From positions 84,740-148,739 of the IMG/VR virus record IMGVR_UViG_3300017769_000001: a stretch of DNA of 64,000 nt. One strand, written 5' to 3'. The notes under the pieces are model-generated. The model was not told the origin of the DNA. It saw nothing but the letters and a program-made list of their open reading frames with translations, and ran no database searches. Below are positions 9,983 through 63,940 of the stretch, piece by piece; the first letter of the stretch is position 1, and every line of letters begins with the position of its first letter. A program made the position numbers and the translations under genes. Source of the DNA: a virus.

Positions 9983-10245
9983 GCCTGCTTGTCAGTAAGG
10001 TAATAAAGACAGTTCGTTGACAAAGAACTGCCCACTTTCTTACGAAGCCTGCTCACTTCTACTCTGATTATTTCCCGCGCTTCATTCTTATCTTCATCAC
10101 TCCCGAATCTATAATCGATTGAATGATAAAGATTAATGAGATCGATCATTTTAGCAGTAGCCTGACCTATGGTCAATTTGTTTGATGGCTTCTGTAATCG
10201 ATCTCTCATCCTGTCAGGACGCATCGCACAACCCTCTAAGTACAA
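9949..10245 (-). CDS. hypothetical protein
   Basis: Fills the gap between the RuvC-like and Prim-Pol genes, overlapping both; start uncertain. Confidence 0.55.
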   Translation of the reverse strand: MYLEGCAMRPDRMRDRLQKPSNKLTIGQATAKMIDLINLYHSIDYRFGSDEDKNEAREIIRVEVSRLRKKVGSSLSTNCLYYLTDKQAWNNAKDGYLG

Positions 10246-10891
10246 ATCCGTACTGACTCAACCAATATGCGTCAGTGAGGTCATACCGGCCTTTCGTCTT
10301 AGGTATCTTCGAGAACTGATCCTTTACTGTCTTGGGGAGTGCGTCGAACATTTCATCTTTCGTCGCTTTTCCGGATCCAGTTGCAAACTTCTTCACGGTT
10401 GTTGGCGTTGCGATATCAACGAACGAGTCTTCAAATTTCACAGTAAACTCATCGTTGATCGCGTTTTTGAAACCATCAATCAGAAGGAACTGAAGCCCCG
10501 CCAATGATCTTGCCGCGTCTCCGGTTGCGCCAAATCCCAATCCTTCCATACAGACGTGCAATGGTGCATTTTCCGACATAGTTAGAGCGTTGGTCTTCAA
10601 ATACAGATTCGTCATGACGTTCCTAACGGCAGCTGCCATGTAATACTGCTGCATCGGTTTGTTCTGTTTAAGCCACTCTTCCCCACCACCAACAAGAACA
10701 TCAAGAGCAGGATGGAGGACAGGTATATCTCTCTTTTTGTTATTCGGATCTGATGCTGGGCTTACTTGCACAAGGTCATATGCAATCAGGTTGCCGTCCA
10801 CATCGGTGATACACCATCCAGTACTTGCAAGTGATTGATCGACCCCGATTATTAACGGCTTTTCATGTCTTACTTGATTGCAAGAATTCAT
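10214..10891 (-). CDS. ruvC: RuvC-like Holliday junction resolvase
   Basis: IIGVDQSLASTG, VCMEG, PTTVKKFATGSGKATKDEM and DLTDAY motifs. Confidence 0.88.
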   Translation of the reverse strand: MNSCNQVRHEKPLIIGVDQSLASTGWCITDVDGNLIAYDLVQVSPASDPNNKKRDIPVLHPALDVLVGGGEEWLKQNKPMQQYYMAAAVRNVMTNLYLKTNALTMSENAPLHVCMEGLGFGATGDAARSLAGLQFLLIDGFKNAINDEFTVKFEDSFVDIATPTTVKKFATGSGKATKDEMFDALPKTVKDQFSKIPKTKGRYDLTDAYWLSQYGFVLRGLCDAS

Positions 10892-10934
10892 AATTTACTC
10901 TCTCCATAAATATAAGGGATTGGAGACTGTATTT

Positions 10935-11117
10935 ATGAGTAAAAAAGCCGTGCCAGTTAAAACCGAAGACCTGAAAGAAGAAGACCGCATTTACTTGTCA
11001 ATGGTCAAAATAAACCGGCTCGTGCAGAACGAGATTCGAAGATGCGAATACTTAGAATCCTGTCTGACGAGCCTTAGTAAGAATATTGACGAGTCTAACC
11101 AAAGGAAATCTGGCTGA
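10935..11117 (+). CDS. small late hypothetical protein, antisense to its neighbours
   Basis: TAAATA at 10907-10912, GGAG RBS, ATG at 10935; 3' end overlaps the gp46 3' end. Confidence 0.55.
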   Translation: MSKKAVPVKTEDLKEEDRIYLSMVKINRLVQNEIRRCEYLESCLTSLSKNIDESNQRKSG

Positions 11118-54010: not shown

Positions 54011-54049
54011 AAAGGGCCGGTGGATTTAATCATCGGCTCTTTACTTTTT
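54011..54049 (+). terminator. intrinsic terminator after phoH
   Basis: AAAGGGCCGGTG...CATCGGCTCTTT then a T-run. Confidence 0.6.
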
Positions 54050-54093
54050 GAACTCTCTATGCTAAATTACCACCATAGCATTAGAGTTTCTTT

Positions 54094-54327
54094 ATGAGCG
54101 ACAACAAATCAACACAGATCACGCCGGTCTGCTCCATCGAATTCTACTACGACCCCCTCACCGAAGTTCCTAAATATCGTATCCGAAGAGCTGACGGAAC
54201 CTTTATGGATCCCCTGTCGGTCTACGCTATGGCATGTGTCGAAGTTCTGGACGAACAACATCCAGATATCATCAGGCGCGTGGAACAGTTGGCTGGGGAT
54301 TCCAGAGTTTCATTAAAAGTCCATTAA
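54094..54327 (+). CDS. hypothetical protein
   Basis: 77-aa ORF filling the gap, preceded by a hairpin. Confidence 0.6.
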   Translation: MSDNKSTQITPVCSIEFYYDPLTEVPKYRIRRADGTFMDPLSVYAMACVEVLDEQHPDIIRRVEQLAGDSRVSLKVH

Positions 54328-54338
54328 GGAGGCAACCA

Positions 54339-54575
54339 ATGGAAGATTACCCAGATTACCTACAGCGTCTTATTGACGAGACAAATGATCTCAGAGAGAA
54401 GATCGACAATCTGTCCAATTTTCTCAGAGGCCCAAAGAGTCACGAAATCGGTTATGTGAGGACGCGTCTTCTTCAGGAGCAATACACGCACATGCAGAAA
54501 TACTATGATGTTCTGGTTGAGCGTGTTGATTTGGAGAAGACTATCCACAACGCCAGAAGAGAGGGGATTAAATGA
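54339..54575 (+). CDS. small helical protein (crAss001_48-like)
   Basis: YLQRLIDE..DL.EKI..L..F...LL.EQ...M..Y..VL..R pattern; AAGGAGG RBS. Confidence 0.65.
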   Translation: MEDYPDYLQRLIDETNDLREKIDNLSNFLRGPKSHEIGYVRTRLLQEQYTHMQKYYDVLVERVDLEKTIHNARREGIK

Positions 54576-56512
54576 GCAAGCTTGGAAAACTGAGAAAGTC
54601 TTTCGATAAGAAGGGCATCATCACTGAAATGAATGAGCCTACAGAATGGATCAGCACCGGGAATGCTGCCATGAATTATCGTCTGACTGGCCGTTATGAT
54701 GTCGGAATCCCAAACCGCCGAACGATGTTGCTGTGGGGTGAGAGTGGCTGTGTAGACGCAGACACTGAGTTTCTGACTCCTACTGGCTGGAAGCGTATTT
54801 CGGAATATGAGGAAGGAGACTTTGTGGCACAGTTTGATAAAGAAACGTGCCAAATGTCTTTTGTTGAGCCGAACGAGTACATTAAGAAACCGTGCGAGGA
54901 ATTTTATCATCTGAAAACGAAGTATGGGATTGATCAGATGTTAACTCCAGAGCACCGTGTATTGTACCGCAGCCCAAAAGGAAAGCTCCAGGTTAAGTCT
55001 GCTGAAGAAGTGGTTCAAGCACATAACTCCGATACTGTAAATGGATTTCGTGGTAAGATTCTGACAACATTCGAACCACCAACTACCGCCGGTATTGATA
55101 TCAGCGACGACAGCCTGCGTCTTCAAGTTGCAGTGATGGCCGATGGAAGCTTCAACCCCAAGAGAACCACATGGGACAATTTCGTTCGGATTAGTGTAAA
55201 GAAAGACCGAAAGAAAGAACGGATTGTGAAACTTTTGGACGCCGCTAATGTGGAATACACCCGAATAGATCGTGATGATGGATTTTCTCGATTTGAGTTT
55301 GGTGCTCCTATGAACACCAAGGTTTTTGGTTCTGAGTTCTACCAATGCACCAAAGAGCAATTAGAACTGATTGCTGACGAATGTCTGCAATGGGACGGGT
55401 CTGAAAACAGGGGAGAGTTTTTCACAACCAGCAAACAGTGTGCGGACTTCATCCAGTACTGTTTTTCAGCGACAGGCAGACGGGCAACAATCTCTGAGGA
55501 TGTGAGAGAAGGAAGAACAACTTCCTATGTTGTACATGCCACTACAACGAATGAAGTCTCCATGGCAGGTGCAACTCGAACTCCAATTGAGAAGGTTAAG
55601 GCTGGAGACGGATTCAAGTATTGTTTCGCTGTTGAGAAGACATTCTTGGTTCTGCGTCGTAATGGTCGGGTGTTTGTCACAGGTAACACTGGCAAGACCT
55701 TCCTGACTTCAAACGCTGCAAAGAACGCACAGGACAAAGGTTATTCGATCATCTATCTGGATTCTGAAGACAGTATCTCGGAAGACTACATGACGAAGAT
55801 TGGGATCGATCTCGACGAAGATAAGTTCGTCCCAGTCCTTATCGATACCATCGAAGAAGCGACTGCCGCCATTGCAGAAATCTTTTCAACGATGGAACCG
55901 GATGATAAGTTCATTCTGATCATCGACTCGCTGGCTGGTATGCTTTCTGAGAAAGAAGAAGGTGAGTTCGAGAAAGGTGTCTCAAAGGGTGACCAAGGTC
56001 AGATGGCGAAGAAGTTGAAGCTCTTCGTGAAGAACATCAACAAGAAAATCTCAGAATATGATGCATTCTGTATTATGGTGACGCACGCGTACCAGAACCA
56101 AGACCCGTACTCCACTGAAGGAAAGTGGATCTGTACTGGAGGTAAAGGTATGCAGTTCTTCCCATCATTCTCCGTGCGTCTGGATAAAGCCAAGCTGAAA
56201 GAAGGCATGAAGGTGGTTAACGGTGTTCGTATCCGTGGCGAAGTAACCAAGACTCGTTTCACTGCACCATTCCAGAAGTTTGAGCTGAAGGTTCCGTACA
56301 CTGAGGGTCTGGATTTTACAGACGGTCTTCTGGATATTCTCGAAGAAGAAGGCGTTGTTTCCAAGAATGGTGCATGGTACAACTACGAGTTCGAAGGTGA
56401 GATTGTTAAGTTCCAAGGTTCAAATTTCCTTGAACACTACGAAGCGATCATGAGTAATTACCAGAAAGAACTCGAAGAAAGCTTTGATAACAAAGAAATC
56501 GAACCAGCGTAA
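54572..56512 (+). CDS. uvsX: UvsX/RecA recombinase, intein-containing
   Basis: WISTG, GESG|TGKT Walker A, YLDSE, IIDSL, KTRF and GAWY. Confidence 0.93.
   Translation: MSKLGKLRKSFDKKGIITEMNEPTEWISTGNAAMNYRLTGRYDVGIPNRRTMLLWGESGCVDADTEFLTPTGWKRISEYEEGDFVAQFDKETCQMSFVEPNEYIKKPCEEFYHLKTKYGIDQMLTPEHRVLYRSPKGKLQVKSAEEVVQAHNSDTVNGFRGKILTTFEPPTTAGIDISDDSLRLQVAVMADGSFNPKRTTWDNFVRISVKKDRKKERIVKLLDAANVEYTRIDRDDGFSRFEFGAPMNTKVFGSEFYQCTKEQLELIADECLQWDGSENRGEFFTTSKQCADFIQYCFSATGRRATISEDVREGRTTSYVVHATTTNEVSMAGATRTPIEKVKAGDGFKYCFAVEKTFLVLRRNGRVFVTGNTGKTFLTSNAAKNAQDKGYSIIYLDSEDSISEDYMTKIGIDLDEDKFVPVLIDTIEEATAAIAEIFSTMEPDDKFILIIDSLAGMLSEKEEGEFEKGVSKGDQGQMAKKLKLFVKNINKKISEYDAFCIMVTHAYQNQDPYSTEGKWICTGGKGMQFFPSFSVRLDKAKLKEGMKVVNGVRIRGEVTKTRFTAPFQKFELKVPYTEGLDFTDGLLDILEEEGVVSKNGAWYNYEFEGEIVKFQGSNFLEHYEAIMSNYQKELEESFDNKEIEPA
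54749..55687 (+). mobile_element. intein with LAGLIDADG-type homing endonuclease (313 aa)
   Basis: Starts CVDADTEFLT, block B LTPEHR, VMADGS and LQWDGS endonuclease motifs, ends RRNGRVFVTGN followed by Thr. Confidence 0.92.
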
Positions 56513-56517
56513 GTATA

Positions 56518-56540
56518 TGGGGCGAAAGCCCCATTTCATT
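56518..56540 (+). terminator. hairpin/terminator after uvsX
   Basis: ATGGGGC-GAAA-GCCCCAT-TTCATT. Confidence 0.65.
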
Positions 56541-56552
56541 ACATAGGAGGTT

Positions 56553-56768
56553 GTGATGGATTCTGATGAAGTTGCTGAGATTAACGCAGAGATCGCGATT
56601 ATGTCTCGTCAGATCGAAAATTTCAATCGAAAAATGTCGAGAAGAAAGATGAATCTGACTGATGGTCAGATCGACTCTATTCAACGGCAGATCGCGTTAG
56701 CTCGAAGCAGTATTGAGCAACTAAGAGCGATCATCAACAGCAAACGACAGGTGATTCTGCATGGATGA
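56553..56768 (+). CDS. hypothetical coiled-coil protein
   Basis: AGGAGG RBS; overlaps the uvsY start. Confidence 0.65.
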   Translation: MMDSDEVAEINAEIAIMSRQIENFNRKMSRRKMNLTDGQIDSIQRQIALARSSIEQLRAIINSKRQVILHG

Positions 56769-57219
56769 CGTCGATATTCTCGACCAGATAAATTCCAGAC
56801 TGAAGGAGCTTCAACAGATCTACGATCAGCAGTTGGAGGAAGACCTGTCCCGGATTGATATTCGGGACAGAGTCCTTTCGGACTGCGTTCGGGATCAGAT
56901 CGAACTTCAGATGTCATGGGAAGAAATCAGTAAAGAGGTAGGGTTTTTGTGTGCCGAACTATCCGATGAATGTGATAAGATGTTCTCCGTTGCATTCAGG
57001 GAACTTTCATCGAATAGCCACAAAGCACTGTCTTTCAATGAAGCAAAGATCTATGCGCAATCTGATCCGGATTACATTGACACGAAGCGGGTACTCAACC
57101 GTGCAAGAACGCTGGAAGCCAAATGTGAAGCTGTGATCGACTCCATAAAATCGAGGAAGTTTCTTCTGAAGAATATCTGCGATATGCTTCGAGACGGAAA
57201 CGACTCATACATCATATAG
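56761..57219 (+). CDS. uvsY: recombination mediator UvsY-like
   Basis: LS.NEAKIY..SDPDY and I.SRKFLLKNI; between uvsX and uvsW. Confidence 0.75.
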   Translation: MDDVDILDQINSRLKELQQIYDQQLEEDLSRIDIRDRVLSDCVRDQIELQMSWEEISKEVGFLCAELSDECDKMFSVAFRELSSNSHKALSFNEAKIYAQSDPDYIDTKRVLNRARTLEAKCEAVIDSIKSRKFLLKNICDMLRDGNDSYII

Positions 57220-57226
57220 GTGAATC

Positions 57227-57454
57227 ATGAGTGAACAACTGAGAACCCATATCCCGGATGAGTATGTGGCAGCGTGGAACAAGATGTCTCTGGATGAACT
57301 GATGGCTAAGAGTGAACGTCTTCTAATCCATTTGAATAACCTACCATCCAACAGCGAGCAGTTCAAAACCATGAAGCAAATGTGGGAGTGGTTGAACGAG
57401 TACATCGAAAGCAGCATCAAGAAAACAGACATAGACCTCAATACTTTCCTTTGA
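57227..57454 (+). CDS. hypothetical protein
   Basis: AGGTG RBS; operon packing. Confidence 0.6.
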   Translation: MSEQLRTHIPDEYVAAWNKMSLDELMAKSERLLIHLNNLPSNSEQFKTMKQMWEWLNEYIESSIKKTDIDLNTFL

Positions 57455-57470
57455 GGTAAAAGGACAACGG

Positions 57471-58940
57471 ATGAAACTGAAACTCTACATCATTGACGAG
57501 GTAAATGCCAAACTTGAAGGTCTCGGTGTTGACGACGCGATTGACATCGTTGAAGCCATGAAGCTTCCTATCAAAGGAGCGTATTCAACACCGGCTGTAC
57601 AGCTTGGCATTAGTGATGGTAAGGAACCTCTTTTTACGGAGGACGGATTCTTCTACCTGAACCAGCTTGATGAAGTCATTGGCCTTCTCGAAGAGCTTGG
57701 TTACAAAGAAGACGACATCCAAATAGAGGATATTCGCGAGGCAATCCAACACCCGGTAGAAGAATCTGAACTTCCAGAAATCCATCGTGATATGTTCTCC
57801 GAATATGGTGTAGAGCTTTGGGATCATCAGATTGAATTTTTTGAGAAGTTCATTCGTGTCGATAAAGGCATTTACGACGCAAGTACTTCCTCTGGGAAGA
57901 CGCTTTGTCTTGCGGGCACAGCAAAACTTTATGAACCGTACTACCCGTCTCTGTCCATAACCATCAACGAGAAGCTTGTCAACGACGCCGCTAAGATGAT
58001 GGATAAGCTGGGAATGGACTATGTGGTGATCGATTCAAAAGTTCCTCCTAAGAAGCGTGGGGAGCTTATAAAGAAACATCGGCACGTCATAACAACGAGA
58101 AAACTCGCCATAAACATGGCAAAACATTTGGAGGGATTCTTTGGAGTTCTGATTGTCGACGAGACGCATATCCTTGGCGATTCTTTCTTTGACTTTGGAA
58201 CTAAAACATTGGCGGAATGTCCGATACGTCTCGGTCTCACCGGTTCGCTGCCAGAAAAGTCTCAAGACCCGCTGAAACGCATGAAGATCATGAACATGAT
58301 CGGCGGTGGAATCTTTGCAGAAGTACTCCCGTCATATTTGATGGAGAAGGGGTATGCAGCAACTCTCGATGTTCGTGTTGTGAAACTTCAGGACAACATA
58401 GGGTTGCATAAGCAAACAGAAGCTGGTAAACTATGGGATTGGGAAATGGAAGAAGCCCATTATAATCGATGCCCTGAGAGGATCGAGGCGATAGGCGATT
58501 TCATAATCAACAACTGCCCAAGGAACACCTTGATCATCTGCCGCCCAGAAATGGGTAAAGCTCTCGCAGAATACATAGGGTGTGATTTTGTTGATGGCGA
58601 CACTCCCGTAGAAGAACGTGAGTCGTATTATGCGATGTTCGATGAACGGGACGACTATACGTTAGCCGCGTCCTTCGGGACTTCTGGGACAGGCCTTTCC
58701 ATCGATCTGATTCACTATGGTGTCCTCATCGATGTAGGATCGAATCCAGCCAGAGCCGGACAGAGTATTGGTCGTTTCCTTCGTAAAGACAACGAAGGCG
58801 ATTTGAAAGATTCTGCTGTTGTTTGGGATATTTACTCTAATACCAAATACGGAGAGAAGCAAAAGAGAGAGCGAATGAAGTACTTCAAGAAACGCGGGTT
58901 CAGCGTTCGGGATAAGTACGAAACAATCAACGTGTGGTGA
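57471..58940 (+). CDS. uvsW: UvsW-like SF2 helicase
   Basis: LWDHQ, STSSGKT, IVDETH, GLTGS, GTGLSI and QSIGRFLR. Confidence 0.9.
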   Translation: MKLKLYIIDEVNAKLEGLGVDDAIDIVEAMKLPIKGAYSTPAVQLGISDGKEPLFTEDGFFYLNQLDEVIGLLEELGYKEDDIQIEDIREAIQHPVEESELPEIHRDMFSEYGVELWDHQIEFFEKFIRVDKGIYDASTSSGKTLCLAGTAKLYEPYYPSLSITINEKLVNDAAKMMDKLGMDYVVIDSKVPPKKRGELIKKHRHVITTRKLAINMAKHLEGFFGVLIVDETHILGDSFFDFGTKTLAECPIRLGLTGSLPEKSQDPLKRMKIMNMIGGGIFAEVLPSYLMEKGYAATLDVRVVKLQDNIGLHKQTEAGKLWDWEMEEAHYNRCPERIEAIGDFIINNCPRNTLIICRPEMGKALAEYIGCDFVDGDTPVEERESYYAMFDERDDYTLAASFGTSGTGLSIDLIHYGVLIDVGSNPARAGQSIGRFLRKDNEGDLKDSAVVWDIYSNTKYGEKQKRERMKYFKKRGFSVRDKYETINVW

Positions 58941-59428
58941 GAATGCAACTTATAGATGAAAATTATCAACCTCTTGATATCACTACCGAAGAAGGACTGA
59001 GACAGTACTTCTTCGAGTATATCGTAAAACCAGCCGACTTCCAGTTGAAACTCAGTAACATGTGGGATATGACTGAGGAAGACGTCCATTGGTATCGTCT
59101 GAAGATTGGAAAGTGGGAGATTTCTCTTCCTTCCAATGTCTACATGATGCTCGCTGATGTTCATAGTAATTCTGTGGACTGGGTTCGTGTTGACGAAATT
59201 AACGGTCGAACATTGACAACAGCTCTGTACTACTCTGACCTAAAAGCAGACAAGTACTCAATCGAGAAGATCTCGATCCTTTCTGTTGATCGCGAGAAGA
59301 AGCCGTGTATCCTCCCGAACACAAAAAACCTTTTGCCAGTTTACGTCGATGGTGGTAGAATGATTCTGTGCAGTGACAGAGATTCATTTGTCAAGACCAA
59401 GGCGCTAAACTTCACATGTTTGTATTAA
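58934..59428 (+). CDS. hypothetical beta-rich protein (possible inactive Hint-like fold)
   Basis: Overlaps uvsW and the dnaE N-part; YRLKIG..EISLP...WVRVDEI pattern. Confidence 0.6.
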   Translation: MVRMQLIDENYQPLDITTEEGLRQYFFEYIVKPADFQLKLSNMWDMTEEDVHWYRLKIGKWEISLPSNVYMMLADVHSNSVDWVRVDEINGRTLTTALYYSDLKADKYSIEKISILSVDREKKPCILPNTKNLLPVYVDGGRMILCSDRDSFVKTKALNFTCLY

Positions 59429-59922
59429 AAGACAGGATCCTTCTACCATCTGGAATCTCATTACTGACTCCAGAACAAGCAGCAAAAAAGATTGTGGCTC
59501 AGGGAAATCTTGAGCCACATTTCCGTGTTGAACAATGTTTTGCTGCGAAGGAATACGAACTGATAACCGGAAACCGTGTTCTTGAGAACACCATGGAGGA
59601 CATTCCACCTTCACCGGATCTCCAACACACCAACCAAGACTATGACCGTCTTGTTGACGTGATCGTAAATTCTGAACGATATTCCCCATCAATGGATGAT
59701 AGAATTGCCCTTGAAATGGAGTTCTTCGACAGAACCATGAACGTGAAGTTTCTTTTGAAGCTTCATGATCTCGTGACCCAATTCAAAAAAGAGGGCGTTG
59801 TCTGGGGTGTTGGGAGAGGTAGTGCGATTGCTTCTTTGGTGTTGTATCTACTTGAACTGCATGACATCAATCCATGTGAATACGGAGTTCCGTTTCACGA
59901 ATTATCAAAAGAGAGGCTTTGA
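59416..59922 (+). CDS. dnaE: family-C DNA polymerase (DnaE) N-terminal palm fragment
   Basis: RIALEM...GVGRGSAIASLVLYLLELHDINP.EY.VPF equals the DnaE GPGRGS...ITDLDP region. Confidence 0.85.
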   Translation: MFVLKDRILLPSGISLLTPEQAAKKIVAQGNLEPHFRVEQCFAAKEYELITGNRVLENTMEDIPPSPDLQHTNQDYDRLVDVIVNSERYSPSMDDRIALEMEFFDRTMNVKFLLKLHDLVTQFKKEGVVWGVGRGSAIASLVLYLLELHDINPCEYGVPFHELSKERL

Positions 59923-59923
59923 T

Positions 59924-60205
59924 ATGAGTAAGAAAATTCGACCGCTTGGGAATGACGTTCTTCTGAAGTTCCGAACCACTGAAGGTTCAAACTTTACGGA
60001 AGGTGGCATCTATGTCCCGGATAACGACAAGAACACAGACTTCGAGTATTATGATGTGGTTGAGGTCGGCCCAGACGTGACTTCAGTATCCCCCGGAGAG
60101 GTTGTTCTTATCTCTTGGGCGAAAATTACCCCACCTTTCGATCACGACGGAGCTAAGTACGGAATCACTTCAGAGTACGAGATCCTCGCCGTTCTGGAGA
60201 CTTGA
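59924..60205 (+). CDS. groES: GroES-like co-chaperonin
   Basis: IRPLGNDVL, TEGGIYVP, VVEVGP and EILAVL; ATG at 59924. Confidence 0.88.
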   Translation: MSKKIRPLGNDVLLKFRTTEGSNFTEGGIYVPDNDKNTDFEYYDVVEVGPDVTSVSPGEVVLISWAKITPPFDHDGAKYGITSEYEILAVLET

Positions 60206-60206
60206 T

Positions 60207-60515
60207 ATGTTTTTCGAACACGGAGCAAAGATCTGTATCTCGAAAGTGGTTGTCGATGGCAAGCTTTACGAAGTCCCTTTGGCTATCGCTGAGAGTGAGG
60301 GTAAACTCATACTTCGATCAAACGGCGTGCCACTACCACTTCCAGAAGTAAAGGGCGACGAAGCGGTGATAGCGTTTGGAGACGGAAACGTCTATACTGT
60401 GCCTTTGGTTGGGGAAAACCTCCACTCGGAGGATTCCGCTGTTTCTTATGTCGTTATGAAGAAGATCGACGGAATGACAGAGAAACAACTCGATTCATTC
60501 ATCAAGGAGCTTTAA
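60207..60515 (+). CDS. hypothetical protein
   Basis: GGAG RBS, ATG at 60207, operon packing. Confidence 0.6.
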   Translation: MFFEHGAKICISKVVVDGKLYEVPLAIAESEGKLILRSNGVPLPLPEVKGDEAVIAFGDGNVYTVPLVGENLHSEDSAVSYVVMKKIDGMTEKQLDSFIKEL

Positions 60516-61469
60516 ATGGCTATTGATATCAGCAACAAAGTATGGGCGGAACTGTACCGCCCAACGACATTGTCCCAGTACATATTCGCAGACCCCGGAC
60601 TGGAAATGAGAGCGAAGGACTGGGTCTCCAAGGGAGTATTCCCGAATCTGATTCTCGCTGGCATTCAAGGAACCGGGAAGAGCACACTTGCCCGAGTTCT
60701 GATCAACGATTGCAACGTGACTGCAAGTGATGTTCTCTTCATCGACGGCTCTGTCTACAATAAAGTGGACGACATTCGAGACAAAGTTGTCATGTTTGCA
60801 GAGATCTCCCCACTCGGAGATTACAAAGTAGTCGTAATTGAAGAAGCCCACCGACTGACGAAAGACGCTCAAAGTGCTCTGTTCGAAACTGTCGAGAGGA
60901 CGAGTGATTATGTCCGGTTCATCTTCACTACCAACTACCCGAAGAAGTTGCTGCCCCCACTTCTCAGTCGGTGTGAACTCTTTACCTTCGACGGCTTCAA
61001 TGAAGACGCGGTTCTCGACCTGATTGCCGACATCATTGAAATGGAGCAAATCGAACTGAGCGACGAATCTGCGGTCAATGTGGAACGCCACATCGCAGCT
61101 CACAAGCCGGACATCCGTTCGATAATCTCCAGCATCCAGTATTCGTACTTTGATGGCGCTATCCATCCGCCGAGTTCTTCAATCAAATCATCGTCTATCG
61201 ATGACTGGACTGCGATATGGTCTGCGGATAAGCTGGACTTCGAAGCTGCTCGGGAAATGGTTTATCTGGCTGATCAGACAAACTACGAGTTGTTCTATAC
61301 CGCCATCTATGAAAACGGACTCCACCATTTCGAGGATCCGGGGATGGCAGTTGTTCAGATCAGTGAGTACCTTCACAGGGCAATGAATGTCAACACCCAA
61401 GGAATCCAGTCAATCCACCTCGAAGCTCTTCTGGTGATTCTGGATTCCGAGGTTGGTATCAAGGAATGA
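60516..61469 (+). CDS. gp44: clamp loader large subunit (gp44/RFC-like)
   Basis: WAELYRP, GTGKST, IEEAH, FIFTTNY, LLSRC and PDIR. Confidence 0.93.
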   Translation: MAIDISNKVWAELYRPTTLSQYIFADPGLEMRAKDWVSKGVFPNLILAGIQGTGKSTLARVLINDCNVTASDVLFIDGSVYNKVDDIRDKVVMFAEISPLGDYKVVVIEEAHRLTKDAQSALFETVERTSDYVRFIFTTNYPKKLLPPLLSRCELFTFDGFNEDAVLDLIADIIEMEQIELSDESAVNVERHIAAHKPDIRSIISSIQYSYFDGAIHPPSSSIKSSSIDDWTAIWSADKLDFEAAREMVYLADQTNYELFYTAIYENGLHHFEDPGMAVVQISEYLHRAMNVNTQGIQSIHLEALLVILDSEVGIKE

Positions 61470-61882
61470 ACATACAACACGTTCTTTCGAGAGTAACCGC
61501 TGGAGACTGCGACTTCTTCCTCAATATGACTGAGGAAGAAGTTAAAGAGTTATCCCCGTATGTTTTGACGCTTTGGCTTCGAGGGGCGAATGAAAATCGG
61601 GATGCTCATGTTTTGCTGACTGATGCGGTTGTGAACAGTAAGTTGTTTTCCCTGTCACGCCATCCGAAGTTACTCTATCTCCTATGCTGCTACGCAAATT
61701 CTGGTATGGGGAGAACTCGGTACTCATTCATCAACGACAAGAAAGAAACAACCGGCAATAAACACAAGGTTGTCATGAGAGAGTTCCAATGCAGCGAGGC
61801 TGTTGCTAAAATGTACCTGAACTTTCTCGATGGCGACGATATCAAGCAACTTGAGAAGAAATACGAAGAGGTTGACAAATAA
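61466..61882 (+). CDS. probable clamp loader small subunit (gp62-like)
   Basis: Coupled to gp44; SPYVL..W, HPKL.Y.L and CSEAVA..YL. Confidence 0.65.
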   Translation: MNIQHVLSRVTAGDCDFFLNMTEEEVKELSPYVLTLWLRGANENRDAHVLLTDAVVNSKLFSLSRHPKLLYLLCCYANSGMGRTRYSFINDKKETTGNKHKVVMREFQCSEAVAKMYLNFLDGDDIKQLEKKYEEVDK

Positions 61883-62538
61883 TGCCAGAATACTATAACG
61901 ACGTAAGTCATATGTACCAAGAACCGGCCAAGGAACTGAAGAACGGGAAGTTTCAATGCCCTGTCTGTGGTGCTGAGTATGCCACGAGATCCGGGGTGTT
62001 CAAGCACATGCAGAAACAAGACTGCGCCCCAGCATCCTTGATGTTTGAAGGTACGATTACAGAGGATGTGGCTCACAGCCTTTTCTGTGATACGGTCGGA
62101 CATTACAGCAAACACCAGCGGAAGTCTCTCTCCAGCTTTCGGAAGAGCAAGCACTATCGCGGCGTATTGCAAGCAACTCTCCACTGCATGAACAACAAGA
62201 TTGATTCTGTATTGTTCATGGAATGGATCCGGATGTCGAAGAAACCCCGATACTACAACCACTTGATGAGTCTGGCTGTCAAGGATTCTACTCTGGTTGA
62301 TTTCAGGAATCACCTGATCAAGAACGAAGAGTTGATCGACTCCAGTTACTTCTTCGAGAGGAACGAAGAACAGATCCTGAAAAGTGACTCTTTCCTGATT
62401 CGCTCTCTGCAACGTGGTGATATTGGGCTGGACTACTGCATGAACCACAAGGATATCGATCTGATGTCTCGAATTGATGGAATGTGTGAAGCAAATCGCA
62501 TCCACCTTCTGTCTGTAGTGAAAGTGAAAGAGGGCTGA
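61882..62538 (+). CDS. hypothetical protein with N-terminal C2H2/C2HC-like zinc finger
   Basis: FQCPVCGAEY....GVFKHMQKQDC. Confidence 0.7.
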   Translation: MPEYYNDVSHMYQEPAKELKNGKFQCPVCGAEYATRSGVFKHMQKQDCAPASLMFEGTITEDVAHSLFCDTVGHYSKHQRKSLSSFRKSKHYRGVLQATLHCMNNKIDSVLFMEWIRMSKKPRYYNHLMSLAVKDSTLVDFRNHLIKNEELIDSSYFFERNEEQILKSDSFLIRSLQRGDIGLDYCMNHKDIDLMSRIDGMCEANRIHLLSVVKVKEG

Positions 62539-63155
62539 TGATGAGACGGGCGTTTGACGTTGACCTCGATGTGAAGAGCGGGACGAACAAAGACAAGTTT
62601 GGTTTGCGTTCCTTTGTTTACAACGAAGAGAAGCAAACGCTCGTCCCACACCCATCTGGATATTTCCTTCGGAGTGCCGATTTGACAGGAGAAGACGTTC
62701 CTGTTGATCCTGAAAGCGGTTTATCTGCTCTCAGTTCAGACGAAGGTGAACAGCTTGGATTCTTCAAAGTCGACTTACTGACAAACACATCTTACGACAA
62801 GTTTCGTACGAAACAGGAAGTCTTGGATGCGATGAGTACAGAAGGATTTGACTGGGGCGTCTTCCTTGATAAGGAAATCGTCGAATCACTCCCCCATATC
62901 AACAAGAGCTATTCCCTGATTCGACAACTCCAACCTCAAAGCGTTGAAGACCTTGCAGATGCGCTTGCTTTGATTAGGCCGGGGAAAATTGAGTTGTTTG
63001 ATGATTACCTGAAGAACAAAGCGAAGACTCGACTGAGATTGTATAAGCGCCCTTCAAATGGCGGCATGTACTTCAAGAAGAGTCACGCGGTCGCGTATGC
63101 GGTTATGATCATAGTAGTTATCAATGGTAGAAAAGATAATGATTTCTTTTCTTAA
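62538..63155 (+). CDS. dnaE: family-C DNA polymerase (DnaE) catalytic palm/fingers fragment
   Basis: FDVDLD, HPSG, GFFKVDLL, ALIRPG and YFKKSHAVAYA. Confidence 0.88.
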   Translation: MMRRAFDVDLDVKSGTNKDKFGLRSFVYNEEKQTLVPHPSGYFLRSADLTGEDVPVDPESGLSALSSDEGEQLGFFKVDLLTNTSYDKFRTKQEVLDAMSTEGFDWGVFLDKEIVESLPHINKSYSLIRQLQPQSVEDLADALALIRPGKIELFDDYLKNKAKTRLRLYKRPSNGGMYFKKSHAVAYAVMIIVVINGRKDNDFFS

Positions 63156-63476
63156 TCATGCAACATTGAGGCGCACTTTTTTGATTGATTGTGGTTTCTT
63201 CTTTGCCTGAGAAGAATCCACCACCCCACGCTTGTTGATAAGATTGACTTGGGGTAACTTGATCCTCGGGAAGTAAGTAGAACAGAACACAGAGAAACGG
63301 ATATCGTTATACTTAGCTTTCCAAATGATTGCTGCGAGTATTAGAGTAGGATCATCTTCTATGATGTCAAAATTAAAAAAGTGAATGAATCTGTCGGACT
63401 GATAGTCAAACACTCCGGTGAACGTGACGCCATTTGACATCTTCACCCAATCAAGTACATAATGGTCGTTACTCAA
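63156..63476 (-). CDS. late hypothetical protein
   Basis: AAGGAG RBS, TTG start, TAAATA at 63501-63506. Confidence 0.6.
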   Translation of the reverse strand: MSNDHYVLDWVKMSNGVTFTGVFDYQSDRFIHFFNFDIIEDDPTLILAAIIWKAKYNDIRFSVFCSTYFPRIKLPQVNLINKRGVVDSSQAKKKPQSIKKVRLNVA

Positions 63477-63505
63477 AACAATCTCTCCTTTGGTTAGGTG
63501 TATTT

Positions 63506-63940
63506 ATGCTTTGCAAAATCGTGTACGAAGACGGATCATCAACCGATGAAAATATGAACATTGGCGTCAATTGCGATGGGTATCTTATATACCCGGAAAG
63601 CCCCGGTATGTTTTACGAAGGTGATAAGTTTGTACCGAAGATTGCTGGATGTCTTATCCCGAATTATGGATATGGGAATCTAACTCCAGTATCTATCCCA
63701 TTTACTCAATCTGGAAAAATTATAACAGAGTCCATGCTTGCTACGGAAATCCAGAATGTCTTTTCCAAAAGAACCGGAGGCACTCTGATGTTGATCGACC
63801 ATTTCGGTGATAAGGAGCATTGGAGTGATCTGGTGGCGAACTTAATCGTCTGTGATTTGGATTTAGCTCCGAGTGTAAACTCTTTGATGAACAACCGCTC
63901 ACAGCTCAGAAGCGTCGTTCTATCCATGATGAGTTTGTGA
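63506..63940 (+). CDS. hypothetical protein
   Basis: AGGTG RBS, ATG at 63506. Confidence 0.6.
   Translation: MLCKIVYEDGSSTDENMNIGVNCDGYLIYPESPGMFYEGDKFVPKIAGCLIPNYGYGNLTPVSIPFTQSGKIITESMLATEIQNVFSKRTGGTLMLIDHFGDKEHWSDLVANLIVCDLDLAPSVNSLMNNRSQLRSVVLSMMSL

Follow-up and report, generated by a model that had tools for sequence, protein, structure and literature searches.

A likely minimal split DNA polymerase III alpha encoded by two nearby genes of a T4-like phage

The window analysed here, a stretch of 64,000 nucleotides from the IMG/VR record IMGVR_UViG_3300017769_000001, contains two small genes, ORF A (59416..59922, 168 aa) and ORF B (62538..63155, 205 aa), each resembling a different part of the family-C polymerase DnaE, or DNA polymerase III alpha. 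The locus raises the question of whether two such short proteins can constitute one enzyme, how they would be joined, and what the enzyme would do. In our view, A and B likely represent the N- and C-terminal halves of the phage-specific "minimal split DNA polymerase III alpha", a small family-C polymerase present beside the phage's own family-B polymerase (PolB).

The phage is T4-like. Its record is complete (148,739 bp, with terminal repeats) and lies below the jumbo range, and its nearest cultured relatives, the Alishewanella phages, have genomes of 141 kb. A Megablast search of positions 59000-63500 against cultured phages gave no match, and the relatives are visible only at the protein level.

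A palm divided between two genes of one string

Both ORFs are present where the original prediction had placed them, in a string of eight genes on the plus strand (58934-63155, 4.2 kb), each of which abuts or overlaps the next. Counting UvsW, which precedes these eight, the gene order is UvsW, U1, A, GroES, a 102-aa ORF, gp44, gp62, U2 and B. U1 (58934..59428, 164 aa), a free-standing protein of the Hint (intein) fold, matches phrog_11279, which is labelled function unknown; its true start is likely the ATG at 58943, and its end overlaps the start of ORF A by 13 nt. ORFs A and B are 2.6 kb apart, and exactly five ORFs lie between them, GroES and a clamp loader included, as had been predicted. 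These are a Cpn10/GroES-like co-chaperonin analogous to T4 gp31 (59924..60205, 93 aa; PF00166, E 7.4e-9), the 102-aa ORF (60207..60515), which has no Pfam or PHROGs match, an RFC/gp44-type clamp-loader ATPase (60516..61469, 317 aa; PF00004, E 1e-12, and PF13177, E 8.6e-12), a 138-aa ORF (61466..61882), and U2 (61882..62538, 218 aa), a C2HC zinc-finger plus helical protein (zf-C2H2, E 8e-4). The 138-aa ORF is probably the clamp-loader small subunit analogous to gp62; it matches phrog_11758 (E 2.4e-13) and, weakly, phrog_225 "clamp loader" (E 0.0036). The base at 62538 is common to the stop codon of U2 and the start codon of ORF B. Because both halves lie in one tightly packed gene string, they are probably produced together, and the string is probably one operon.

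ORF A matches the Pfam family DNA_pol3_alpha (PF07733, E 3.4e-12), only at profile positions 16-92 of 260, and phrog_11127 in PHROGs. Its residues 89-162 align with residues 317-390 of E. coli DnaE, including the GRGS motif, and W130-S136 are invariant among 55 aligned A-type sequences. The protein ends after FHELSKERL, ahead of the DxD motif. It supplies the opening portion of the Pol-beta-like palm, including the triphosphate-binding GS motif (GVGRGS).

ORF B matches DNA_pol3_finger (PF17657, E 2.9e-6) and phrog_11778 (E 3.2e-42). Because a phmmer search of the PDB with ORF B alone gave no match, a profile of 71 homologues was required for the alignment with Thermus aquaticus Pol III alpha. 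The profile is collinear with residues 461-521, 601-705 and 809-824 of that enzyme and matches its landmarks, namely DxD at 463/465, KxD at 618, RPG and KSH. In the 71 sequences, D7, D9, K77, D79, R147, P148, K180 and H183 are invariant or nearly so. ORF B begins 6 residues ahead of the DxD motif and contributes the metal-binding aspartates D7, D9 and D79 together with shortened fingers, represented by R147-P148-G149 and K180-S182-H183. The aligned A-type (55) and B-type (71) sequences share approximately 30% identity, with the catalytic and dNTP-binding residues kept.

The Pfam matches and the alignments with the E. coli and Taq enzymes thus bear out the prediction that A ends with the GRGS region and that B starts at the next motif and carries the three catalytic aspartates. 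As judged from these alignments, neither protein has a whole active site: A carries the GS motif, whereas the Asp triad and finger motifs are in B. Each half lacks the residues that the other carries, and therefore only the pair can form the active site.

The cut point, the joining of the halves and the missing domains

The break in the chain falls within the palm, after the GS helix and before the DxD strand. The cut point, whose conservation in relatives had been proposed as a check, is conserved across the 55 A-type sequences and nearly all of the 71 B-type sequences; close relatives of A terminate just past F.E(L/F)SKE in 7/7 cases, and nearly all of the B proteins start 0-15 residues ahead of DxD. 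The conserved Phe in A is 15 residues away from the first Asp in B, compared with what we take to be 13 residues for the equivalent spacing in E. coli DnaE, which indicates that nothing is missing at the cut. No intein blocks were found where A ends or where B starts; both places are polymerase (extein-like) sequence, in agreement with the earlier statement that intein ends are not visible. Since the cut ends carry no intein halves, no splicing is expected, and A and B would associate non-covalently.

The presence of a Hint-fold gene adjoining A, and of a canonical-looking intein in the UvsX-like gene of the same phage, could suggest that protein trans-splicing, or an RNA-level event, restores a single chain from the halves. 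The AF2 model of U1 (mean pLDDT 93.7) indeed has the whole Hint fold, with Z values of 10-12 over 130-142 residues against inteins, bacterial intein-like (BIL) domains and Hedgehog Hint domains. In VIA-align it superimposes on the AceL NrdHF intein with Z 12.1 and an rmsd of 3.3 Å over 142 residues, and on the Ssp DnaE intein with Z 11.9. The top Foldseek matches all belong to these three classes, as do all of the 50 entries listed among the 62 chains with Z ≥ 8. However, U1 differs from inteins in that it is not inserted in a host protein but has its own start and stop, and the alignment of its family (28 sequences) has no N-terminal Cys/Ser, no conserved block-B (Thr-x-x-His) His and no terminal His-Asn. 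The invariant residues of the family are instead D35, D82 and D150, with an invariant Asp near the position of the terminal Asn. The U1 profile has no sequence similarity to the UvsX intein (probability 0.4%). Together with the complete junction and the distances of 11 to approximately 240 kb that separate the halves in relatives, these features bring the rejoining of the halves close to refutation.

The two proteins total 373 aa, as against more than 1100 aa for the cellular enzyme, close to the predicted size of about 370 aa. Compared with the DnaE/Pol III alpha enzymes of E. coli (2HNH) and T. aquaticus (2HPI) and with PolC, the GS motif, Asp triad, RPG and KSH are collinear, whereas the palm is cut, the PHP, thumb, clamp-binding, HhH and OB regions are missing, and the fingers are reduced to approximately 70 residues. 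The absence of PHP, HhH and OB domains had been predicted, and a Pfam search of ORFs A and B finds none of them, only PF07733 and PF17657 being matched; the PHP profile PF02811 also gave no match in the complete genome. The alignment of the B family shows no clamp-binding tail conserved at the C-terminus; aromatic pairs (DFFS, LFFD) close the sequence in a few near relatives but not in the family as a whole. The split mini Pol III is the smallest known family-C polymerase core.

The loss of the thumb, most of the fingers, and the clamp-binding, HhH and OB regions weighs against a polymerase. With the domains that hold DNA lost, the pair might be a nucleotidyltransferase that is not template-directed, that is, a terminal transferase, a de novo primer maker or a maker of signalling nucleotides; the palm of Pol III belongs to the Pol-beta-like nucleotidyltransferase fold (PMC7824862), which also builds non-polymerase enzymes. 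On the other hand, every search gives replicative Pol III alpha as the closest sequence relatives, and fused forms of the pair adjoin replicase or helicase genes. The finger motifs RPG and KSH are also nearly invariant, and in Pol III structures these motifs presumably contact the incoming dNTP, the His serving as the sugar gate. A nucleotidyltransferase other than a polymerase is therefore regarded as unlikely, and the A-B heterodimer is proposed to be a small family-C DNA polymerase that would lack proofreading.

Relatives, selection and earlier descriptions

The two halves are widespread. B homologues form 167 representative clusters at E ≤ 1e-3, and at least 593 intact B-encoding stretches are present in IMG/VR. 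A-type ORFs were collected from 80 related loci, a cultured-phage relative, a fused form and this genome; all 83 are open, and their lengths range from 92 to 375 aa, all but two being 157-255 aa. In the Alishewanella phages, the RaK2-like phage K64-1 and Atu_ph07, both halves are present and always as separate genes, which are 33 kb apart in K64-1 and 182 kb apart in Atu_ph07. Both of the complete jumbo records with B that were checked (343 kb and 425 kb) have one small A gene, far away. Natural fusions also occur, though rarely. A is followed by B in a single chain in P0041, P0178 and P0179 (375-376 aa), which come from independent samples, and in P0112 (336 aa), whereas P0137 (398 aa) is a permuted fusion with B before A. 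The P0112 gene shares 4 nt with a Rep-type replicase gene (PF03090 Replicase), as does the P0137 gene with a gene for an AAA_25 helicase. The fusions, the permuted one included, are independent evidence that the halves act together, and they would be good constructs for structure work.

As both ORFs fall far short of cellular DnaE in length and have lost most of its domains, they might be decaying relics of a captured dnaE without present function, a possibility for which a dN/dS check had been proposed. Because dS is saturated between the window and its nearest relatives, ω was estimated by the Nei-Gojobori method on closer, unsaturated pairs among the related loci. The values are 0.09-0.18 for A, a median of approximately 0.05 for B, approximately 0.045 for U1 and approximately 0.047 for U2, which places each of the four conserved genes under strong purifying selection (approximately 0.045-0.18). 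The absence of relaxed selection on A and B (0.05-0.18), the invariance of the catalytic residues over 71 and 55 sequences, and the large number of intact copies refute the decay of these genes. The predicted two-piece, non-covalent mini family-C polymerase thus draws support from the divided active site, the fused and permuted forms, purifying selection and co-occurrence in the jumbo records.

The suspicion that the genes might already be known proved correct. A "minimal split DNA polymerase III alpha" has been described computationally in group 2.2 jumbo phages and put forward as a model for what the ancestral enzyme was like (Iyer et al. 2021, Viruses 13:63, PMC7824862), and PHROGs already includes both halves under the label "DNA polymerase". 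The present pair consists of the same two proteins with the same cut, an N-terminal NTP-binding piece and a C-terminal metal-/template-binding piece; it likewise has no other Pol III domains and is accompanied by a family-B polymerase and a replication set of the T4 type. It differs in that the genome (148.7 kb) is not a jumbo genome and in that the halves, described there as "distantly located", lie in one gene string. With a sequence-based description of the split enzyme dating from 2021, this pair is a new and unusually compact example of a known oddity, and together with its uncultured relatives and the Alishewanella phages it indicates that the enzyme also occurs outside jumbo phages. The literature searched contains no report of the split enzyme being tested biochemically or genetically; the PaBG paper concerns other Pol III subunits. 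A family-C polymerase made from two genes is also known from the cyanobacterial split-intein DnaE (Ssp/Npu) and from "fractured" phage polymerase genes. In contrast to the split-intein enzyme, the phage pair has no intein halves, and the cyanobacterial split is presumably located elsewhere in the protein.

Proposed role and conserved neighbours

The genome encodes a PolB with an exonuclease domain (C1:8400-11110), which is itself split over two adjacent ORFs, and no match to PolA was found in it. It also contains a T4-type replication and recombination set with UvsX-, UvsY- and UvsW-like genes, an RFC clamp loader and a DnaB-like helicase. Because the genome has PolB, the split enzyme is taken to be accessory, as the original prediction had supposed, and it would work beside the family-B replicase. 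In Bacillus subtilis, where DnaE accompanies PolC, and in eukaryotes, where Pol alpha accompanies Pol delta/epsilon, a second polymerase without proofreading extends primers before hand-off. The phage enzyme may offer a functional analogy as a second polymerase beside the main replicase with genes near a primase and a helicase: B lies approximately 1.5 kb before a primase homologue and the DnaB-like helicase, reading across the genome end, and in K64-1 it lies 1.5 kb before the primase and helicase. The most likely jobs would be short-patch synthesis, such as primer extension followed by hand-off to PolB, or recombination and repair synthesis driven by UvsX/UvsY/UvsW. This role is proposed from gene neighbourhood, and the genes belong to an extensive replication block whose synteny is kept anyway. 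Should primer extension for PolB prove to be the function of the enzyme, the fork of T4-like phages would be a two-polymerase one.

The constancy of U1 and U2 raises the possibility of a larger dedicated complex built around the mini polymerase as catalytic core, in which U1 and/or U2 replace the lost DNA-binding and assembly functions. U2 is upstream of B on the same strand in 56/63 loci with enough flank (median gap 226 bp), and U1 is so in 38/50. The order U1, U2, B also holds in K64-1, where A, GroES, the 102-aa ORF and the clamp loader, which here lie between U1 and U2, are located elsewhere; the clade of this phage has U1 directly before A and U2 directly before B. In addition to being strongly constrained, both proteins fold with high confidence, the AF2 model of U2 having a mean pLDDT of 91.4, and C26, C29, H42 and C48 are invariant in the U2 family. 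However, a conserved neighbourhood within a syntenic replication block is no proof of binding, and U1 of K64-1 stays beside the UvsW-type helicase and so may serve that protein. No annotated U1 or U2 was present near the fused and permuted forms, as judged by annotation on three contigs of only 2.4-8 kb. A predicted complex of A, B and U1, with U1 as the scored partner, gave 0.01 (mark 0.32), which speaks neither for nor against binding. A larger complex is accordingly considered possible but doubtful.

The model of U2 has no match in the PDB at E ≤ 0.001 by Foldseek, its best alignment in a wide VIA-align search (Z 6.6 over 67 residues) is not distinctive for a helical protein, and in the Atlas it finds only "C2H2-type" phage proteins of unknown function. 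The C-domain of T4 gp59 has no match in the genome, so that U2 as a helicase loader is a guess. More speculatively, and in our estimate rather improbably, U1, U2, A and B could constitute a four-gene module kept in many hundreds of environmental phages, in which the splicing-dead U1 would be a dedicated assembly or DNA-handling subunit. The module would then extend primers and pass them on to PolB, much as Pol alpha or Bacillus DnaE does in cells. The 4.2-kb string, which contains both halves and the two conserved partners, could be cloned and expressed unaltered.

A divided family-C active site

The original prediction of a naturally split, minimal family-C DNA polymerase located both of its ORFs correctly: ORF A, the N-terminal half, lies at 59416-59922 (168 aa), and ORF B, the C-terminal half, at 62538-63155 (205 aa). 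A matches the Pfam family DNA_pol3_alpha (PF07733, E 3.4e-12) over profile positions 16-92 of 260 only, and its residues 89-162, GRGS included, align with E. coli DnaE 317-390. B matches DNA_pol3_finger (PF17657, E 2.9e-6); a PDB search with the B sequence alone gave no match. A profile of 71 B homologues is collinear with three stretches of Thermus aquaticus Pol III alpha, which are 461-521, containing the DxD at 463/465, 601-705, containing the KxD at 618 and the RPG motif, and 809-824, containing FNKSHA. This collinear alignment indicates that B runs from the DxD through to KSH and has lost the thumb and a large part of the fingers.

Across the aligned families, conservation is complete or almost complete at R96, E100 and W130-S136 (WGVGRGS) of A and at D7, D9, H38, G41, K77, D79, R147, P148, K150, K180, H183 and Y187 of B. 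The active site is shared out between the two proteins: A contributes the GRGS-containing palm motif (GS motif), and B the Asp triad together with the finger motifs that contact the dNTP. The KSH histidine, which in Pol III is the sugar gate excluding ribonucleotides, is near-invariant in the B family. The cut is clean: A ends with FHELSKERL and B begins with MMRRAFDVDLD, and the distance from the conserved Phe of A to the first catalytic Asp of B is 15 residues, compared with 13 in E. coli DnaE.

Conservation of the split point and dN/dS had both been proposed as checks on the pair. The cut position is kept in A-type and B-type relatives. All 83 A-type ORFs are open; they come from 80 related IMG/VR loci, from a cultured-phage relative, from a fused form and from the present genome. 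Their lengths are 157-255 aa with two exceptions, an ORF of 92 aa and the fused form of 375 aa. The DxD is preceded by 0-15 residues in nearly all of the 71 B proteins. Selection on both halves is strongly purifying, with dN/dS (omega, Nei-Gojobori, pairs with unsaturated dS) of 0.09-0.18 for A and a median of 0.05 for B.

Distribution and natural fusions

The A+B pair belongs to a known, computationally described family, the minimal split DNA polymerase III alpha of group 2.2 jumbo phages (Iyer et al. 2021, PMC7824862), and its halves correspond to phrog_11127 (A) and phrog_11778 (B) in PHROGs, both labelled 'DNA polymerase'. In tblastn searches, A and B were both present, each time as separate genes, in several phages, at distances of 11 kb (Alishewanella phages), 33 kb (K64-1, a RaK2-like phage) and 182 kb (Atu_ph07); matches to both halves were also found in phages of Xanthomonas, Escherichia, Erwinia and Salmonella, among others. 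An exhaustive HMMER search of 1.84 billion representatives gave 167 clusters of B relatives at E<=1e-3, almost all of 185-215 aa, and B is almost always stand-alone. At least 593 stretches in IMG/VR encode a B relative. The two complete jumbo records with B, of 425 kb and 343 kb, each have exactly one small A gene elsewhere, at distances by record coordinates of ~244 kb and ~84 kb, respectively. No bench test of a minimal split Pol III alpha was found in the searchable literature.

Fused forms of A and B occur naturally. The cluster P0041 (375 aa) is a direct A+B fusion, in which residues 7-186 match the whole of A (hhalign probability 99.8%) and residues 219-373 match B; P0178 and P0179, from independent samples, are 78-81% identical to it. 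Stand-alone B proteins of the ordinary kind are closest to P0041 (51-59% identity), which suggests a re-fusion inside the split family. P0112 (336 aa) is also an A+B fusion, and its gene has a 4-nt overlap with a PF03090 Replicase/HTH gene (L089:1516-4181). P0137 (398 aa) is a permuted fusion, with B (6-193) preceding the part of A that has the GS motif (217-317; probability 97.5%), and its gene overlaps an AAA_25 helicase gene by 4 nt (L088:871-3383). The contigs of P0112 and P0137 are short, each with a divergent ~189-aa gene upstream, and could represent small replicons of plasmid or phage type that encode a mini polymerase of their own.

The divided active site, the kept cut, the purifying selection, the fusions and the co-occurrence support the original reading of a non-covalent, two-piece mini family-C polymerase; together with the stand-alone state of B, these sequence features support the view that A and B are functional and act together. 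Of interest in the present case are the genome's small size, the compact, operon-like gene order, the natural fusions and a conserved cassette of B with two further proteins, U1 and U2.

In some of the uncultured phages that have U1, U2 and B as a cassette, an unsplit Pol III alpha of 563-575 aa is encoded ~5 kb downstream of B (L132:15034-16725 and L150:16109-17836; also in L129 and L166). Its palm is complete (PF07733 positions 19-260), fingers are present, and the search gave no PHP match; in size it is intermediate, and it occurs alongside the split form.

The gene string and the companion proteins U1 and U2

On the (+) strand, 58934-63155 holds eight genes in a row, namely U1, A, GroES-like, 102-aa ORF, gp44-like, gp62-like, U2 and B, and neighbouring genes overlap or are separated by one base at most. 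ORF positions and Pfam and PHROGs matches bear out the five ORFs predicted between A and B, which are a Cpn10/GroES-like gene, a 102-aa ORF, an RFC-type clamp loader, a probable small clamp-loader subunit (138 aa) and the zinc-finger protein U2. No convincing terminator was found on the (+) strand in 54042-63155. The layout suggests translational coupling through the whole eight-gene string.

U1 (58934-59428), directly upstream of A, was modeled as an all-beta domain with a mean pLDDT of 93.7. The top PDB matches of this model belong without exception to inteins, bacterial intein-like domains or the Hedgehog Hint domain (Foldseek probability 1.0), and VIA-align gave Z 12.1 with an rmsd of 3.3 Å over 142 residues, with 62 chains at Z>=8. 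In the alignment of the U1 family (28 sequences), D35, D82 and D150 are invariant, and the N-terminal Cys/Ser, a conserved block-B His and the terminal His-Asn are missing. The modeled Hint fold and the missing splicing residues indicate that U1 is a free-standing Hint protein that is splicing-dead. U2 (61882-62538), directly upstream of B, combines an invariant Cys-Cys-His-Cys finger with a helical body; structure comparisons of its model (mean pLDDT 91.4) found no clear structural relative. The omega values of U1 and U2 are ~0.045-0.047.

Among 80 B-centred IMG/VR loci, counting those with enough flank, U2 precedes B on the same strand in 56 of 63 (median gap 226 bp) and U1 in 38 of 50. The order in K64-1, which is UvsW-like helicase, gp152, U1, gp155, U2, gp157, B, shows the same U1, U2, B succession; there, A, the GroES-like gene and the clamp loader are 33 kb away, whereas in the window's clade the block of A, GroES, 102-aa ORF and clamp loader lies between U1 and U2. 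A Hint partner is not mentioned by Iyer et al. (PMC7824862).

B is followed by a convergent ORF at 63156-63476 (-, 106 aa) and by one at 63434-63940 (+, 168 aa), neither of which matched Pfam or PHROGs. The region's best match to a sigma-70-like promoter (11 of 12 positions) is at 63434-63463.

Other polymerases of the genome and the predicted role

The window is the final 64 kb of a complete 148,739-bp record with terminal repeats. A search for a family-B polymerase, proposed with the original prediction, found PolB with an exonuclease domain in the same genome. It consists of two adjacent ORFs with a one-base overlap outside the window, C1:8400-10145 (581 aa), comprising the exonuclease and the first part of the polymerase, and 10145-11110 (321 aa). 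In Alishewanella phage Slicko01, the nearest cultured relative, PolB is annotated in the same two-gene layout. In the present genome, the first 44 residues of the second PolB ORF had no match among other phage PolBs. Neither a PolA nor a PHP match was found in the whole genome. The presence of PolB and of T4-type recombination and replication genes indicates a T4-like phage that has more than one polymerase, the mini Pol III being the accessory one.

Genes around the A/B locus encode an intein-containing UvsX-like recombinase, a UvsY-like mediator and a UvsW-like helicase, and UvsX, UvsY and UvsW directly precede A. Across the genome end past B, there are genes for a homologue of the K64-1 primase (E 2e-13) and for a DnaB-like helicase; in both K64-1 and the present phage, the primase and helicase genes are ~1.5 kb downstream of B. 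The replicase, helicase and primase neighbours, the upstream UvsX, UvsY and UvsW genes and the near-invariant KSH histidine point to a DNA polymerase, predicted to lack proofreading. By its gene neighbourhood, and by analogy with Bacillus DnaE/PolC, the pair would perform short-patch work beside PolB, which could consist of extending primers ahead of hand-off or of synthesis linked to recombination. Iyer et al. (PMC7824862) suggested that the split enzyme cooperates with the family-B enzyme in one-strand synthesis or repair.

In the UvsX/RecA-like recombinase gene (54572-56512, +), the P-loop (GESG / TGKT) is interrupted by the intein of ~310 residues, which starts with CVDADTEF, has a block B TPEH and a weak LAGLIDADG match, and ends with VTGN followed by Thr. 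From these residues, the intein looks splicing-competent.
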